From: a virus
Taxonomy: Duplodnaviria; Heunggongvirae; Uroviricota; Caudoviricetes
Length of the DNA stretch: 14,939 bases
Virus record (IMG/VR): IMGVR_UViG_2695420456_000009
Strand: one strand, 5' to 3'
In this document: positions 111 to 6,599 of the stretch, piece after piece
How the letters are laid out: every line of letters begins with the position of its first letter
Numbering within the stretch: position 1 is the first letter of the stretch
Made by a program: the position numbers and the translations under genes
Notes under the pieces: generated by a model
Told to the model about the DNA's origin: nothing
The model's input: only the letters and a program-made list of their open reading frames with translations
The model's database searches: none

Positions 111-1361
111 TCAGGCTAGTGCTTTTTCCAGACCAGAAAGTTTGTTTGCGCGACCGTATTTTTCGCCATCCTTGTCGGTGAAGAGGAAGTAGAACGGCCC
201 CTCACGCTCTACAGATGGTTCGACTTCCACTTTGCATTCGGTTTTTTCGTTGCCCGGAATTGCCGTTTCCACTGCATCAGTTTCTGGTACTGGCGACGAG
301 AGAGTATCAGTTGCGCTCTGATTTCTTCCTTCATCTTCAAACACGCCCTTTGTAGTCAGGTATTCAGTAATGTATTTGTTCAGTGCCACAGGGTCTTTGT
401 GAATGTCGATCGGACGTTCACGGACAAGGCCAAAAATAGTCTGGCGGTCGTAGCGAAGGGCATCAGGCTGTTTGCGCATTGATGCCGAGATACGCTTCCA
501 GTCTTCGCGGTCGTTGTCGATAACTTCATTTTTTGCCCAGCGATGGATGCTGCCGTCAATGTTTCCGGCATCCACATCACCAGGCCAGAGAGCGTAGGCC
601 AGTTCTTCATCCAGCGTTTTCCATGTCTGCTTGTATTCGCGACAAATGGCGGCAGTGACTGGGTTGATTTTTCCTGCTGAGTTTTCAGTGTTCTGTTGAT
701 TGACTCTGGCGCTGGCGAGATCAACAACAGACGTGTATTTTCCAGTCTCTTTGCGCTCTGCGTCCTGCCGTTTTTTCCAGTTACGTAATTCAGCCTGAAT
801 TTCGGGCCATTTGGCACCCGGATTACATTTGTGTTTAACCCATCCGATAGCGAACAGTTTGCGTTCCGGATACATAGCGTTAATTTCAGGCGTTTTCATC
901 AGTGCTTCAACGATATGCCCGTCAAAGGTAGCAACGTCTTCCTGCAGTAATTCCTGCGCGTCAATCGCCATATCAACGGTGATGTTTTCACATGTACCGA
1001 ACTTAACCAGGACCGCGTTCTGTACTTCAAGGGACAGCTTGTCAAAATTGACGTTCATCGGATCGGATTCTGGTTCGACCGGAATAAAGGAAGCGGATTC
1101 CTCATCCCAGCGGTTTTCCTGCATATATTCAGCATCCCAGGAATCGAGGGCAGGGCGGGGTATACCGGGTTTATCCTCGCAGACAAGAAATTTATAAGCG
1201 CAGTCCTGAGCAGCCGGATAATGTTCCAGGAATTGCCAGTGAAATTTTGCGCGGGCGCGACGTTCATCACCGGCTTCAATGGCAGTGGCTACAGCGACGG
1301 CACCTTCTTCCTTTATTGCCTGTTCGTCCGGAATGGCGGCGCAAATAAAGACTTTACTCAT
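111..1361 (-). CDS. hypothetical prophage early-left protein, 416 aa, acidic C-terminal half
   Basis: Long uninterrupted minus-strand ORF with ATG start; sits at the distal end of the dicB operon where K-12 Qin carries ydfE. No catalytic motif recognised. Its stop codon lies at or inside the putative IS terminus, so the C-terminus may be IS-derived. Confidence 0.7.
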   Translation of the reverse strand: MSKVFICAAIPDEQAIKEEGAVAVATAIEAGDERRARAKFHWQFLEHYPAAQDCAYKFLVCEDKPGIPRPALDSWDAEYMQENRWDEESASFIPVEPESDPMNVNFDKLSLEVQNAVLVKFGTCENITVDMAIDAQELLQEDVATFDGHIVEALMKTPEINAMYPERKLFAIGWVKHKCNPGAKWPEIQAELRNWKKRQDAERKETGKYTSVVDLASARVNQQNTENSAGKINPVTAAICREYKQTWKTLDEELAYALWPGDVDAGNIDGSIHRWAKNEVIDNDREDWKRISASMRKQPDALRYDRQTIFGLVRERPIDIHKDPVALNKYITEYLTTKGVFEDEGRNQSATDTLSSPVPETDAVETAIPGNEKTECKVEVEPSVEREGPFYFLFTDKDGEKYGRANKLSGLEKALA

Positions 1362-1456: not shown

Positions 1457-1645
1457 TTATCCAGCCGGTATTTCGTTATTCAGGTTCAGCGATACTTTTT
1501 TTAACGGGAGGCATTCACCGGGGATTTTTTGTTCGTCCCTTACCTGAATGCAGGATGACTTACTGTCATAAATTCCGGTAATCACATTTTGTGGCTCACC
1601 CGTTATAAGAAAAACGGTCATCACCAGTGCAAATGCTGAAGTCAC
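1457..1645 (-). CDS. ydfD: YdfD-like small membrane/lysis protein (62 aa)
   Basis: Protein MTSAFALVMTVFLITGEP...EQKIPGECLP...NNEIPAG matches my recollection of Qin YdfD (hydrophobic N-terminus, EQKIPG and EIPAG motifs). Start overlaps dicB stop in an ATGA arrangement. Confidence 0.75.
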   Translation of the reverse strand: MTSAFALVMTVFLITGEPQNVITGIYDSKSSCIQVRDEQKIPGECLPLKKVSLNLNNEIPAG

Positions 1646-1830
1646 TGCTGTTCTCCGATAATACCAAGTTCAAGAAGGGCAATTCTGGAAAGTATGGAAT
1701 TATCATTGAGAAGATAAGGTTCATATTTTCTCATCTTAATGGCATCTTCCGTAAACTCCCGGTTACTGAGCAGAACACCAATATCAAAACAACCTTCAGA
1801 CGTATTAACGTTTGGTAATAACGTTTCCAT
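1642..1830 (-). CDS. dicB: DicB cell-division inhibitor (62 aa)
   Basis: N-terminal sequence METLLPNVNTSEGCFDIGV...FTEDAI is near-identical to remembered K-12 DicB (MKTLLPNVNTSEGCFEIGV...FTEDAI); C-terminal third diverged. Lies immediately downstream of DicF, as in Qin. Confidence 0.85.
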   Translation of the reverse strand: METLLPNVNTSEGCFDIGVLLSNREFTEDAIKMRKYEPYLLNDNSILSRIALLELGIIGEQQ

Positions 1831-2004: not shown

Positions 2005-2057
2005 GGGCGGCAGAGCAGTCACGGAGTAAAACTGATACCGCCAAACGTCACCAGAAA
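2005..2057 (-). ncRNA. dicF: DicF small RNA (53 nt, antisense regulator of ftsZ and other mRNAs)
   Basis: Minus strand reads TTTCTGGTGACGTTTGGCGGTATCAGTTTTACTCCGTGACTGCTCTGCCGCCC followed by TTTT, matching my recollection of DicF. A 9-bp inverted repeat GGGTTGTCA/TGACAACCC at 2083-2118 could be the RNase III processing stem. Confidence 0.85.
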
Positions 2058-2390
2058 ATTGATAACAGAGGGCGTTGCAGCGGGGTTGTCACTTAAGCGT
2101 ATGGTCAACCTGACAACCCGGTGTCCTCAACGGGGAAGGAATAACCCCTCCATACTTACCGCCGCGCCATTTCGCGGATTGCCACAACCGGAAGCGCACG
2201 GTCGACGAAAATTTAACGACAGGCTATCTATGAACCAGCTACCTCGCCGTGCGCTTTCGCGTTATGGTCTGACTTTTCAGAGAAATATCCTTTCAGTAAA
2301 CTGTCAGTGCCGGATGTTCACCCGTGTCCGGCGCACGCACTCCACTTCACCCGTGGAGAACTCCTTAATTACCAACCCTCAGGAGGGTGA

Positions 2391-2624
2391 ATGTTAAAAT
2401 CAACTCTTATTGCTAAATGCCTTTATCAAAATCGCATGGTAAGCAGCATTTCAATAGGCGAGTCTGCAGTTAAAAGTATTTTCGAAGAGTACTTTCCCGG
2501 GCATGATTTTAATAAATGGAATACCAAATTACCGCCAGCAGTTTCAACGCGTATTCTGAAAGCAACCGAAAGAGCAAGTACAATTCGCGTTAACTATTTC
2601 ATTAAAGATTTGTGGGATCTTTGA
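2391..2624 (+). CDS. hypothetical protein, 77 aa, antisense to the dicB operon
   Basis: ATG preceded by strong RBS AGGAGGGTGA; an ORF of this length in AT-rich sequence is unlikely by chance. 3' end overlaps the convergent 135-aa gene by 23 nt. No family recognised. Confidence 0.4.
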   Translation: MLKSTLIAKCLYQNRMVSSISIGESAVKSIFEEYFPGHDFNKWNTKLPPAVSTRILKATERASTIRVNYFIKDLWDL

Positions 2625-3009
2625 TATCCACAGAGCCTAAAGTATGTGCATATGGATGTGCTATTATGCGCCCTCGCAGATTTGCATCATTTTCTAAATT
2701 CACTGAACGAAACAGGGCATCAACAAGGCTCTGTACAATGCAAAGGCAATCGAAGACTGTCGCCGTTTCTGTTTTGATTGATGAAAGAACATGGCCATTC
2801 ACGCAAACAGAAATTACCCGTTTATTAACATCGCTTTCCTGCTTTTGATTATCAGAACCATATAGCCCAGAAAAAGCATTGCGCACATTACGAACCATAT
2901 TATCGATGGTTTCTTTTTCTGCGGTACTAAGGTCAAGAGTAGCCAGTTGTGAACGAACTATATTCGATGCCATTTCCTGTAATGGCGTTGGTAAATCTTT
3001 AAATTCCAT
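2602..3009 (-). CDS. hypothetical protein, 135 aa, extra gene between ydfC-like and dicF
   Basis: ATG start with GAGG RBS 24 nt downstream of the YdfC-like stop; lower-GC sequence than neighbours; no motif recognised. Confidence 0.65.
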   Translation of the reverse strand: MEFKDLPTPLQEMASNIVRSQLATLDLSTAEKETIDNMVRNVRNAFSGLYGSDNQKQESDVNKRVISVCVNGHVLSSIKTETATVFDCLCIVQSLVDALFRSVNLENDANLRGRIIAHPYAHTLGSVDIKDPTNL

Positions 3010-3031
3010 TATTAGCCTCGTTGGTTAGCTA

Positions 3032-3250
3032 TTAACGTGGGTATGTAATCATTCTGGCAATGCTTAATGCCGCTGCTTTTTCCAGATTGGTGATATCCTG
3101 CTCCAGAGCGGACAGATTTTCAGCCTGCTTAGCCCTGGCTTCATTGGCCCATTTCAGGTCCTGCACCGCCTTAATTTTCTGGTGCATCCACTCATAAAGT
3201 TCATCATCGGTATAGTCTGGCGCGATGATGACGGGGTCTCGTTTCTGCAT
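3032..3250 (-). CDS. ydfC: YdfC-like protein (72 aa)
   Basis: 72-aa ORF, same length as Qin YdfC, ATG with AGGAG RBS; position in the dicA-proximal part of the operon. Assignment by position and length only. Confidence 0.6.
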   Translation of the reverse strand: MQKRDPVIIAPDYTDDELYEWMHQKIKAVQDLKWANEARAKQAENLSALEQDITNLEKAAALSIARMITYPR

Positions 3251-3322
3251 GTCGGCTCCTTGTGGTTAGCGTTGCCTGCTTTTTAACCACGTCAGGCGAG
3301 GTGGTATCCTCTGAGGGGTCTG

Positions 3323-3679
3323 TTACTCGAGAGGAAATTGGTTATGAATACAATCAAGTTTTCTTGCCCAGAATGTGGTGGCTAAGTCTTTGACACATCC
3401 TTTAAGCCGCAGGGCTCTGACAGTTTCGCGGGAGCCATCTGCAAAAATTGTGGTCACCTTGTAACTGAAGATGAGTCCTCGCAGTTCGATGACGAAATCG
3501 TTGACAATATCTTCGGTGCACTCACCAGAGACTTTCTGAAGTAAAGGCGCATACCGCTTAGTTACCGCTCTGATAACTCTTACCTGTCCGGCAATGGCGC
3601 TGATATCAATATAAAGCGCCATCGCTGTTTCTTTGCTGATCCCTGGACGCCTTCCATTCTGATGTTTGACTTCGCCCAC
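3323..3679 (-). CDS. hypothetical protein, 118 aa, first gene of the leftward operon (ydfA/ydfB position)
   Basis: GTG start with AGAGGA RBS; first ORF downstream of a TTGACC promoter-like element in 3680-3886. May be the intact form of the short K-12 ydfA/ydfB ORFs (inference). Confidence 0.55.
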   Translation of the reverse strand: MGEVKHQNGRRPGISKETAMALYIDISAIAGQVRVIRAVTKRYAPLLQKVSGECTEDIVNDFVIELRGLIFSYKVTTIFADGSRETVRALRLKGCVKDLATTFWARKLDCIHNQFPLE

Positions 3680-3886
3680 TGAGAAATCCTCTGCTTCCCC
3701 TTAACGCCGGGTAGCGGAACTGTTTGCTGAGAACACCGTGCGGTGTCTTGATGAGTAGAATTTAGAATAGCCTAAGAGTTATGGTCAAGCTTTTTGTGTA
3801 GAAAAACCTAAGCTTCTTGATGTAAAAAACACAAGTATTTGAAAGTTTGTGCTTTTTATTACAGAGAGTTGCGAAAAAAAGGGGGG
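3680..3886 (-). promoter_or_regulatory. early-leftward promoter/operator region between dicA-like stop and the 118-aa ORF
   Basis: Minus strand contains TTGACC followed about 18 nt later by TAAATT; CCTAAG motifs at 3771-3776 and 3808-3813 resemble the repeats in the dicA-dicC intergenic region. Confidence 0.3.
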
Positions 3887-4294
3887 TTATTTATTTGCGC
3901 TTCTTTTGCGAGCTTTGAGTAGTTCTTCAAAAAGTTTGTTGAAATTCTCAACTCGAGCACGCATCTCTGACAACAGAGCCTTTTGCTCTGACTCAGGCAG
4001 TGCGTCGAACAGTTGAAGCAACTCTTTTTGATCTTCTGTCAGATTGACTGGCTGATTATCTGGGATCGGTTCGCCTGGTTGCTTATCTTCATCTCCAAAA
4101 AGAAGCCAAGTCGGCGAGCACTGAAGCGCCTGGCTCAGTGCGAATAATCTCTTCCCCGCTGGCTGTGTTTCATCTCTTTCCCATTGAGAAATTGTTACGT
4201 GAGCCACTTTGACCAGCTTACCTAATGCGGCCTGAGACAGTTTTAATTTTTTTCGCCTGTATAAGAGGCGAGCACCGAAGGTTTCGTTTTTCAT
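3887..4294 (-). CDS. dicA: DicA-like prophage repressor (HTH XRE family, 135 aa)
   Basis: Protein ...LYRRKKLKLSQAALGKLVKVAHVTISQWERDETQPAGKRLFALSQALQCSPTWLLFGDEDKQP...NFNKLFEELLKARKR matches remembered DicA in length and sequence; divergent from a Cro-like gene. Confidence 0.85.
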   Translation of the reverse strand: MKNETFGARLLYRRKKLKLSQAALGKLVKVAHVTISQWERDETQPAGKRLFALSQALQCSPTWLLFGDEDKQPGEPIPDNQPVNLTEDQKELLQLFDALPESEQKALLSEMRARVENFNKLFEELLKARKRSANK

Positions 4295-4370
4295 ATTAGG
4301 TAATTCTAATTTTTCTTGGCTTAGGTTTCTCTACGACCTAGTTTCCTTAGGAAAATCTAAGGGGTTCGAT
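4295..4370. promoter_or_regulatory. divergent promoter/operator region of the immunity switch
   Basis: 76-bp intergenic region carries CTTAGG (4320-4325), CCTAG (4336-4340), CCTTAGG (4345-4351) and CTAAGG (4357-4362), mutually inverted half-sites plausibly bound by the DicA-like repressor. Confidence 0.5.
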
Positions 4371-4598
4371 ATGTTGAAAATTGATGCTATAGCGTTTTTT
4401 GGCAGCAAAACAAAGCTTGCCAATGTCGCAGGAGTTAGGCTGGCAAGCGTTGCTGCATGGGGGGAACTGGTTCCTGAAGGTCGCGCGATGCGCCTGCAAG
4501 AGGCATCCGGCGGGGAACTTCAGTACGACCCCAAAGTTTATGACGAATATCGTAAGGCAAAGCGGGCGGGGCGGTTGAACAATGAAAATCACCACTGA
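4371..4598 (+). CDS. dicC: DicC-like Cro-type regulator (75 aa)
   Basis: Protein MLKIDAIAFFGSKTKLANVAGVRLASVAAWGELVPEGRAMRLQEASGGELQYDPKVYDEYRK resembles remembered DicC; RBS AAGGGG; divergent from dicA-like. Confidence 0.8.
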   Translation: MLKIDAIAFFGSKTKLANVAGVRLASVAAWGELVPEGRAMRLQEASGGELQYDPKVYDEYRKAKRAGRLNNENHH

Positions 4599-5133: not shown

Positions 5134-6145
5134 AAAGGTGAAAACCGGCAGTTCATCCAGTAAGTCAGTATTGACCTGGCTTGCTGATATGTGCGGTGCC
5201 GATTTGTGTGCATACCCGTCTGTATCTGCACTGGCAGAAGTAACGGAACTGAACAAAAAGACTGTGCAGGACAGCTTACGACACCTGATGGAGATTGGGT
5301 TAATTGTTGATACCGGTGAGAGAAAAGGCAGAACAAAGCAAATTGTGGTGTACCGACTTATCGGTGTAGAAGAAAGTGTTGCCGAGCCTGAATACACCCA
5401 AAAACGGGAGTCTTTAAAGGTGGGTAAAATTGGTGCTGTTAATAAAAACAGTACCGAAAATGGTTATGTTTCAGCACAAAACAGACCCAAAAACAGAACT
5501 CTTAGCTGCATGGAAAATAACCAAAGACACCCAAATTTTCCATCAAAGACACCCAAAAACGGATCACGGAACCCAAAGGAACCCAAAGATCTAAACCCCA
5601 CACATAACGCACGCGAGAGTGCTCCGACCAGTGAGCAGGAAGTTTTGTCGTTACAGGCAGCCCCCCCTGTATTCCTGTATGGCCTGAGCGAACCCATCGG
5701 AAAATTCCCGATGAGCGATAGCTGGTATCCGTCACGGGATTTTCGACGACGGGCTGCGTTGTGGGGGATGGCTTTGCCGGAGACAGAATTTACACCTGCT
5801 GAACTTGCCGCCTTCCGGGACTACTGGGCAGCGGAGGGGAAAGTGTTTACGCAGATTCAGTGGGAGCAGAAATTCGCCCGTCACGTAAATCACGTCAGGG
5901 CGCAGGTTAAACCAGTCAGCAAAGGGGTAAACCATGCAGCAGCACCAGGTGGCACCGCATCACGGGCAGTTCAGGAAATTCGGGCAGCACGTGAGCAGTG
6001 GGAACGTGAAAACGGATTTATCAGCGACGGAAACGGCCTGGAAGCTGTGGGAACTCATGGGGGTGGTTTATTCGAACCGCTGGATCCAGAAGAACGGGGC
6101 CGCACCTTCGAAGCTCTGGATTGCACAGATTGGCGCGATGACTGA
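5105..6145 (+). CDS. phage replication initiation protein (lambda O-like, N-terminal HTH)
   Basis: Preferred start ATG 5105 with RBS AGGGG 6 nt upstream (track ORF opens at 5030). N-terminus MSIDALRWAKKV...SVLTWLADMC...PSVSALAEVTELNKKTVQDSLRHLMEIGLI is a typical replication-protein HTH; iteron cluster lies inside the gene as in lambda O. Confidence 0.8.
   Translation: MSIDALRWAKKVKTGSSSSKSVLTWLADMCGADLCAYPSVSALAEVTELNKKTVQDSLRHLMEIGLIVDTGERKGRTKQIVVYRLIGVEESVAEPEYTQKRESLKVGKIGAVNKNSTENGYVSAQNRPKNRTLSCMENNQRHPNFPSKTPKNGSRNPKEPKDLNPTHNARESAPTSEQEVLSLQAAPPVFLYGLSEPIGKFPMSDSWYPSRDFRRRAALWGMALPETEFTPAELAAFRDYWAAEGKVFTQIQWEQKFARHVNHVRAQVKPVSKGVNHAAAPGGTASRAVQEIRAAREQWERENGFISDGNGLEAVGTHGGGLFEPLDPEERGRTFEALDCTDWRDD
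5481..5590. repeat. iteron array, candidate phage origin of replication inside the O-like gene
   Basis: Direct repeats of an ACCCAAA core: CAAAGACACCCAAA at 5521-5534 and 5546-5559, GGAACCCAAAG at 5569-5579 and 5578-5588, and a degenerate copy at 5481-5496. Confidence 0.7.
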
Positions 6146-6599
6146 GCAGCAAATCCGGCAGGTCTGCCGCCAGTGCATGGACCGCTGCCGGGCGGGTGAA
6201 ACATGGCCTCCGGACCTGGCTGAGTTTGTGGCACTGATTTCGAAAAGCGGAGCCAATCCATTCGGTCTGACGGTGGATGCTGTGATGGAGGAGTACCGCC
6301 GCTGGCGCAATGAGTCCTGGCGATACGACGGAAGTGATAAGTACCCGTGGTCTCAGCCTGTGCTGTATCACATTTGCCTCGAGATGCGTTCAAAGGGGAT
6401 TGAGCGCCAGATGACCGAAGGGGAATTAAAACGGCTTGCAGAACGGCAACTGACGAAATGGGCAAAGCATGTTAGTAACGGCCTGAGCGTTCCGCCAGTC
6501 CGGCGACAACTGGCGGCCCCCAAACGCCCGTCGGGGCCAACGCCAATTGAGTTGCTGAAACAGGAATATGAACGCCGGAAAGCGGCTGGTTTTGTTTGA
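6138..6599 (+). CDS. replication protein P-like helicase loader
   Basis: C-terminal 150 aa align by eye to lambda P (FVALI / YPW / ELKRLA blocks). Start ambiguous: ATG 6138 overlaps the O-like stop in ATGACTGA; alternatives are ATG 6057 and ATG 5934 (track ORF). No Walker motifs, so P-like rather than DnaC-like. Confidence 0.7.
   Translation: MTEQQIRQVCRQCMDRCRAGETWPPDLAEFVALISKSGANPFGLTVDAVMEEYRRWRNESWRYDGSDKYPWSQPVLYHICLEMRSKGIERQMTEGELKRLAERQLTKWAKHVSNGLSVPPVRRQLAAPKRPSGPTPIELLKQEYERRKAAGFV

Follow-up and report, generated by a model that had tools for sequence, protein, structure and literature searches.

The 14,939-nucleotide stretch of DNA analyzed here (the window; IMG/VR record IMGVR_UViG_2695420456_000009) is a lambdoid prophage whose early-left (dicB) operon occupies the minus strand to the left of the repressor gene. 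Across this region the window matches the PPompW prophages of E. coli O145:H28 (e.g. LC567818) at 100% identity; these prophages have been described previously (PMC8112680). The operon runs in the order 118-aa gene, ydfC, 135-aa gene, DicF, dicB, ydfD-like gene and truncated exonuclease gene (Table 1). Compared with the layout of the dicB operon in K-12 Qin (PMC5069750), the 118-aa gene replaces ydfA and ydfB, indicating that the head of the operon is also variable among dicB prophages. On the other side of the repressor, Cro is followed by YdaT-like, O/DnaT-like and P replication genes, RusA, Q and tRNAs. The subject of this analysis is the pair of genes between ydfC and DicF, the 135-aa gene of the operon and a 77-aa gene that reads against it. 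The first-pass annotation had described the two as convergent with a 23-nt overlap, and the 77-aa ORF as having a strong ribosome-binding site; both descriptions hold, with AGGAGG standing 4 nt before the ATG.

Table 1. Features of the cassette and its surroundings, in window coordinates.
Feature	Position	Strand	Remarks
ydfD-like gene	1457-1645	-	
dicB	1642-1830	-	PF05358, E=3.7e-38
DicF sRNA	2005-2056	-	Rfam, 76.7 bits against a gathering score of 48; downstream neighbor
Sigma-70-like promoter candidate of the small gene	2274-2302	+	TTTTCA-N17-TAAACT; putative
Two-gene cassette	2378-3011	.	634 bp; insertion relative to K-12 Qin and phage vB_EcoS-813R8 (junction mapping)
Shine-Dalgarno AGGAGG of the 77-aa gene	2381-2386	+	Part of the leader CCAACCCTCAGGAGGGTGAA
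77-aa gene (phrog_10348)	2391-2624	+	ATG start
3' overlap of both genes	2602-2624	.	23 nt
135-aa gene (phrog_1363)	2602-3009	-	ATG start; RBS GAGG (plus-strand cctc, 3016-3019); dicB/early-left operon
C-terminal domain, residues ~62-135	2605-2826	-	phrog_23433-like; ancestral companion of the 77-aa gene
Constant N-terminal domain, residues 1-52	2854-3009	-	MEFKDLP...AFxGLY; common to proteins with unrelated C-termini
ydfC (phrog_1744)	3032-3250	-	Upstream operon neighbor of the 135-aa gene
118-aa gene (phrog_21318)	3323-3679	-	Unknown function; first gene of the early-left operon
Operator-like 16-mer	3798-3813	.	Left of the dicA-like gene; inverted copy of 4319-4334, 94% complementary
dicA-like HTH repressor	3887-4294	-	HTH_3 domain match
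Cro	4371-4598	+	P22_Cro domain match

Several features elsewhere in the prophage deserve mention. The 416-aa ORF at 111-1361 (-) matches only the first half of the 823-aa exonuclease family phrog_2082, and according to the deposited record the gene is frameshifted by a 4-bp deletion; given the truncated exonuclease, the prophage may be recombination-defective. The nin-like region has a full-length match to the sok antisense RNA (9174-9323, +; Rfam RF01794, 103.9 bits), terminating in an ATG, which indicates a type I toxin-antitoxin locus of the hok/sok kind. A 252-aa ORF (8227-8985, +) with an SBP_bac_11 periplasmic solute-binding domain (E=5.5e-34), an unusual cargo for this position, separates this locus from the replication genes. 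Three tandem tRNAs assigned by ARAGORN (Met-CAT, Lys-TTT and Arg-TCT; 12607-12847, +), two of which were also detected by Rfam at the gathering score, are found just downstream of the Q antiterminator gene (11716-12411), and the late-promoter region beyond them contains a match to the STnc100 sRNA (13626-13798, +; RF02076, 100.8 bits).

The interval between the ydfC stop and the dicF start measures 340 bp in K-12 Qin versus 975 bp in the window, an excess that corresponds to the size of the insert. Alignment with phage vB_EcoS-813R8 located the insertion at 2378-3011, and the same empty junction is present in K-12; the empty site reads CTCCTTAATTACCAACC up to the junction and TTAGC(T/C)TCGTTGG beyond it. 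Both junctions of the cassette are sharp: its left edge is exactly the leader and RBS of the 77-aa gene, and its right edge falls two bases past the start codon of the 135-aa gene. The GC content of the insert is 38-41%, compared with 46-54% in the flanks. The first-pass annotation had proposed both an insertion between ydfC and dicF relative to Qin and a GC content below that of the flanks, and the alignments and composition agree with it on both counts. Insertion between genes that are adjacent in related phages and a deviant nucleotide composition are two of the marks of a moron-type gene, and both were found here.

In 5,426 complete E. coli genomes, 679 places carry the cassette; they are spread over 659 genomes, mostly STEC. 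The conserved dicF flank is far more frequent (8,995 places, 4,316 genomes), which marks the cassette as an accessory element, not a core one. Prophages of this kind share genomes, at a median of 2 and up to 8 dicF-type loci per genome. Qin lacks the cassette, which is not part of the core dicBF operon set (ydfA, ydfB, ydfC, dicF, dicB and ydfD). That the 135-aa gene might be a conserved core member of dicB operons had been named beforehand as a finding that would speak against an insertion; with 679 of the 8,995 dicF-flank places occupied, it is not one. The temperate phage Evi also carries the cassette, at 96% identity. The 634-bp unit is a mobile accessory cassette with two real genes, set in a recombination-prone slot between ydfC and dicF of the DicA-controlled early-left operon.

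Homologues of the 77-aa protein with 55-72% identity were found in Klebsiella, Raoultella, Serratia, Dickeya, Yersinia, Xenorhabdus, Salmonella, Morganella, Proteus and Photorhabdus, so that the family spans at least 10 enterobacterial genera. Most are exactly 77 aa long, and a few were called with N-terminal extensions (78-129 aa). Between Serratia and Klebsiella, the substitutions in the gene cluster at the third codon position (12/6/37), and synonymous codons vary even within the invariant N-terminus of the protein, MLKSTLIAKCL. The strand opposite the gene is non-coding over most of its length. AlphaFold gave a confident all-helical model, with no known relative of the fold; the protein is predicted to be soluble and helical, and no transmembrane helices are evident in its sequence or model. 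Protein conservation, codon-position bias and the confident model rule out a chance ORF, and the concern, also raised beforehand, that the ORF would prove unconserved as a protein is answered by its identity across these genera. Judged from sequence conservation, both genes of the cassette are real and under protein-level selection.

Two observations concern the surroundings of this gene family. In a Psychrosphaera MAG (OZ244904.1; 2989-3228 of locus L104), a homologue 43% identical to the 77-aa protein lacks a partner and sits in chromosomal, non-prophage surroundings, flanked by genes for a chemoreceptor and a glycoside hydrolase, indicating that the family reaches beyond Enterobacterales and beyond the pair. 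In the window, a 112-aa ORF with a TTG start (2059-2397, +) crosses the conserved dicF leader in antisense orientation, with its stop 6 nt inside the 77-aa gene; its frame is fused to the small convergent gene in some relatives (145- and 158-aa calls, at loci L042 and L019). This ORF is probably an artefact of conserved non-coding DNA.

The 135-aa protein is composed of two parts with separate histories. PHROGs 6937, 2151, 9419 and 33007 match only residues 1-55/72, and proteins with this N-terminal domain are 106-212 aa long overall with unrelated C-termini. The DNA of the N-terminal domain is present at 1,840 places in 1,518 genomes, about a fifth of the dicF loci, and a recombination junction lies within it at ~2918 (hits H43-H48 of the E. 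coli genome search). Outside E. coli, the homologues of residues ~62-135 are stand-alone proteins of 77-102 aa; in BLASTP, a stand-alone partner and the C-terminal domain share 41% identity over 68 aa (E=4e-17). When the C-terminal domain was the sole query of a word-indexed homologue search, nothing but full-length E. coli proteins came back, and an exhaustive search of representatives added four further true relatives and two low-complexity false hits (P0205 and P0207). The ancestral partner corresponds to just the last ~75 aa of the 135-aa protein, and the N-terminal third is a constant domain common at this slot. In E. coli CP034803.1 (2724-3937 of locus L258), an IS3-family element (HTH_Tnp_1 and rve genes) interrupts the 135-aa gene after codon ~62, parting the N-terminal from the C-terminal domain and leaving the 77-aa gene intact.

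The arrangement of the two genes is retained across the enterobacteria. In all Serratia, Klebsiella and Dickeya contexts, the 77-aa gene converges with a 77-79-aa partner through the same 23-nt overlap, within operons that contain neither dicF nor dicB. Among 87 further loci scanned, the partner is present at 85, and at 82 of those 85 with the 23-nt overlap; the two partner-less cases are accounted for by a contig end (L168) and by a frameshifted 77-aa gene beside an intact partner (L184). Three more diverged loci (L172, L173 and L177) also have the partner. The last ~75 residues of the operon-strand gene always accompany the 77-aa gene, and these comparisons trace the cassette's core back to an ancient pair of genes carried by temperate lambdoid phages of Enterobacterales. 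The physical overlap would by itself also explain such co-occurrence. Moreover, complete genomes carry a frameshifted or IS-disrupted 135-aa gene beside an intact 77-aa gene, and the reciprocal case, a frameshifted 77-aa gene beside an intact partner, was also found. Either gene can thus be disrupted with the other intact, which gives no signal of dependency. The idea that the small protein is the dangerous one, derived from its never being seen without the partner, was rejected on account of those genomes that retain the 77-aa gene beside a broken 135-aa gene.

In E. coli the slot between ydfC and dicF is polymorphic. Across 89 loci we distinguished at least seven cassette types of shared architecture, which differ in the C-terminal part of the N-domain protein and in the small convergent ORF (63, 69, 73, 77, 91, 92, 100 or 148 aa). 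Apart from the 91-aa ORF, each of them falls into a PHROG family of unknown function. The leader CCAACCCTCAGGAGGGTGAA directly precedes the small gene in five cassette types, the 63-, 73-, 91- and 92-aa genes sharing it with the 77-aa gene, and a second common leader is used in two types. The commonest type encodes a 124-aa N-domain protein and has no small convergent gene. At the same slot of IMG/VR UViG_2623620502_000005 (2954-3400 of locus L036, -), the convergent gene encodes a 148-aa protein (phrog_6315) with an apparent hydrophobic helix pair that recalls small membrane effectors, and with no Pfam match.

Modules are also shuffled between these cassettes. Depending on the phage, the gene facing that of the 63/69-aa small protein encodes either a 201-aa protein (N-C0-ext) or a 119-aa protein (C1-ext); the two operon-strand proteins have only their last ~36 residues in common (E=2e-9), and C1 has a match in the C-terminal domain of a further slot variant (E=5e-14). 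Both fusion contexts preserve this second pairing, between ext module and 63/69-aa protein, at 53-54% identity. The C-terminal domain of the 135-aa protein, in turn, pairs with the 77-aa gene both as a stand-alone protein and when fused to the N-domain. In all four architectures examined, the C-terminal-most module tracks the small gene. The C-terminal domain also persists, apparently constrained, in 201-aa variants that lack the 77-aa gene, which implies a role beyond its own small gene, unless it acts on the copies of other prophages.

How the two genes are expressed was approached through their regulatory sequences. Two operator-like 16-mers (3798-3813 and 4319-4334) flank the repressor gene as oL and oR would, the left one marking the repressor-controlled region of the early-left promoter. 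Similarly, in Serratia operator-like repeats (5558-5607 versus 6336-6398) flank the cI-cro divergent region, and the Serratia partner is the first gene after two operator-like 16-mers, indicating that it heads a repressor-controlled early-left operon. For the small gene, a consensus promoter scan of the window found nothing upstream of the 77-aa gene, the site at 2274-2302 included. In a position-weight-matrix scan this site scored 9.75, which is weak, and was among the seven top plus-strand scores of the window; every E. coli locus retains it, even the empty one of K-12. Outside E. coli, the best promoter-like match in 9 of 11 distinct upstream regions is an extended -10 (TGnTATCTT-like) whose end lies 30-34 nt ahead of the ATG. 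These sites suggest that the small gene may have its own promoter. No intrinsic or bidirectional terminator was found at the overlap (a weak hairpin only, with no U-run and unremarkable z-scores), and a plus-strand transcript would therefore run antisense through the whole 135-aa gene.

The first-pass annotation had stated that neither protein matches a recognized family, and the searches bear this out. Neither scored above threshold in Pfam or NCBIfam; PADLOC-DB v2.0.0 returned zero families at E<=1 for both proteins and the stand-alone partner; PDB-sequence profile searches with all three domains were negative; Rfam had no match within 2378-3011; and no toxin or secretion/delivery domain was detected in the cassette proteins. 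Literature searches by sequence, PHROG ids, UniProt ids or concept found no description of either gene. Structure prediction, proposed for both proteins, succeeded for the 77-aa protein; the 135-aa model, with a pLDDT of 46.7, is too poor for a fold search. From the gene arrangement, a toxin-antitoxin, abortive-infection or anti-defense module had also been suggested. What stands of that suggestion is the conserved pair, which is real; homology to such families was found in none of the PADLOC, Pfam, NCBIfam and PDB searches, and a classical toxin-antitoxin system is unlikely.

Weighing these results, we consider that the cassette may encode a phase-switched antagonistic pair, with exclusion or abortive infection coupled to self-immunity as its likeliest role (probability about 0.35); the role is suggested by a position and logic analogous to sieB/esc and other prophage defenses. 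According to this model, lysogens with a repressed early-left operon would express the small gene, which has its own RBS and probably its own promoter. Loss of repression, upon induction or in a fresh infection, would send strong operon transcription head-on into the small gene and also yield the partner, whose C-terminal module would bind and neutralize the small protein. The small protein would then be a lysogen-expressed function of the exclusion or abortive-infection type directed against other phages, and the early partner would provide self-immunity or escape for the phage itself. Under such a scheme, the polymorphism of the slot and the stacked C-terminal modules would reflect an arms race among co-resident prophages. 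Several findings count against the pair being antagonists: the 124-aa orphan proteins, the single disruptions, the C-terminal domain without a 77-aa gene, the partner-less Psychrosphaera homologue and the absence of a PADLOC match. Furthermore, block exchange between conserved flanks would be expected to produce co-variation without any functional link. An antirepressor role for the 77-aa protein (DicA has no peptidase domain) was rejected as a general explanation, since homologues in other genera adjoin S24-peptidase repressors.

Two alternatives are serious. The stronger, which we regard as somewhat less probable than antagonism, is that two independent moron-type genes lie back to back with no functional interplay, the small gene being a lysogen-expressed moron and the 135-aa protein an ordinary early protein whose C-terminus was altered by exchange breaks in the 3' end of its gene. 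An insert of deviant GC between genes adjacent in relatives is what this predicts, as is the co-variation that block exchange between the flanks would generate, and the 124-aa orphans, the 201-aa variants that keep the C-terminal domain without the 77-aa gene and the tolerance of either gene to disruption fit it as well. It is less easily reconciled with a pairing and a 23-nt overlap that persist down to 55-60% identity in at least 10 genera and in otherwise different operons, or with the retention of the ext and 63/69-aa pairing at 53-54% identity in two fusion contexts; divergence of this order normally reshuffles unrelated neighbors in mosaic lambdoid genomes.

The second alternative, doubtful though to be taken seriously, reverses the polarity: the operon-strand protein would be a host-takeover or toxic effector, and the small protein its cognate immunity, expressed in the lysogen against leaky expression or against the early protein of superinfecting relatives. 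The features looked for in polymorphic toxin-immunity systems, namely a constant N-terminus, a variable C-terminus and an adjacent variable small gene, are all present, with the small gene on the opposite strand. The constant domain extends to an invariant AFxGLY, the variable small gene follows the variable C-modules directly downstream, and module and small gene shift jointly onto different N-parts. In addition, dicB and dicF of the same operon are division inhibitors that are toxic when derepressed (PMC5069750). However, no toxin, nuclease or enzyme domain is detectable, and the modules are small for such a role (just ~75 aa for the C-terminal domain and just ~36 aa for ext). An opposite-strand gene is also unlike known immunity genes, strains exist with a frameshifted small gene and an intact partner, and the stacked N-C0-ext architecture fits an array of binders better than an array of toxins.

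It is improbable that the module acts at the RNA level, with transcription of the small gene serving as an antisense or interference insulator that damps dicF-dicB read-through in the lysogen and the peptides being secondary. The convergent orientation, the position of the insert just upstream of the toxic dicF-dicB and the lack of a terminator at the overlap would suit this. Nevertheless, the 77-aa product is conserved as a protein with free synonymous sites and folds confidently in AlphaFold, the pair occurs in dicF/dicB-free operons of other genera, and the insert has no Rfam match. Finally, we consider an addiction module of the classical type II very improbable despite two small, adjacent prophage genes with conserved pairing, since the genes are convergent and thus not co-transcribed, the partner belongs to a repressed operon, strains with either gene disrupted are viable (so that a toxin would be tolerated without its antitoxin), the pair is nearly absent from plasmids (1 of 72,556 records), no toxin-antitoxin family matches, and a pattern of acidic antitoxin and basic toxin pI is inconsistent across homologues; nor does the insert have the antisense RNA family or small hydrophobic toxin peptide of a type I (hok/sok-like) system.

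Returning to an antagonistic pair, we raise, as an unlikely though conceivable generalization, that lambdoid prophages of Enterobacterales carry an unrecognized class of polymorphic two-protein modules in their early-left operons. In such modules, a small lysogen protein encoded against the operon and a C-module of an early protein that specifically neutralizes it, with folds that have no known relatives, would be exchanged as cassettes at a defined slot. Neutralizing modules would be stacked into multivalent early proteins (N-C0-ext, C1-ext) in an arms race of exclusion and anti-exclusion between co-resident prophages. The pair occurs in ~12% of complete E. coli genomes, including most of the O157:H7, O145, O121 and O111 Shiga-toxin strains among those listed, as well as in prophages of Klebsiella, Serratia, Salmonella, Yersinia, Proteus and other bacteria, and both proteins are annotated only as hypothetical. 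Its locus is the operon that controls the division inhibitors DicF and DicB, beside the immunity region, a typical site of exclusion and defense genes in temperate phages. If the two proteins are cognate antagonists, the polymorphic slot would supply, in compact form, new proteins of phage-phage interference together with inhibitors specific to them, and it could influence which prophages, Stx phages that integrate into PPompW included, are inducible in a given strain or able to superinfect it. If the genes are independent, the slot is still a well-defined exchange hotspot with precise junctions. The pair is a good uncharacterized lead, not a solved system.

Among known systems, the cassette can be compared first with the morons of lambdoid phages, accessory genes found between genes that are adjacent in relatives, as in comparisons of the HK97/HK022 type. 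Like morons, it lies between two such neighbors, ydfC and the dicF leader, which adjoin in K-12 Qin and several phages; it also has a deviant GC content and includes an independently oriented small gene with its own RBS. It differs in that its promoter is only a candidate, no terminator was found and there are two convergent genes, one of them not free-standing but fused in frame to the domain of a pre-existing operon gene.

A functional parallel is offered by sieB/esc of P22, lambda and Rac, in which an exclusion gene expressed in the lysogen from the early-left region is accompanied by a phage-encoded escape function, Esc, an internal product of sieB. The cassette likewise lies in the early-left region beside the immunity region, and the logic proposed for it would be the same, a product of the prophage state harming lytic growth and an early product sparing its own phage. 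By contrast, the cassette has no sequence or family similarity to sieB/esc in Pfam (where the SieB family gave no match), PHROG or PADLOC, the 77-aa protein has no transmembrane segments, and its partner is a convergent gene, whereas Esc is internal to sieB.

In module architecture, the slot resembles CdiA-CT/CdiI and Rhs-CT/RhsI: a constant N-part ends in a sharp motif (AFxGLY), exchangeable C-modules follow, a cognate-looking small gene comes next, and module and small gene move together onto different N-parts. Unlike those systems, the slot proteins are tiny (106-212 aa) and have neither a delivery domain nor a recognizable toxin domain, and the small gene lies on the opposite strand within a prophage early operon. 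With BstA-aba and Tha-type prophage defenses (PMC11087260), the cassette shares a site near the repressor gene and would share the silencing of a defense for the phage's own lytic cycle. The cassette has no homology to them, and the means of self-protection would differ: self-immunity is conferred by a DNA element in BstA and by timing in Tha, whereas the cassette would use a dedicated early protein together with convergent transcription.
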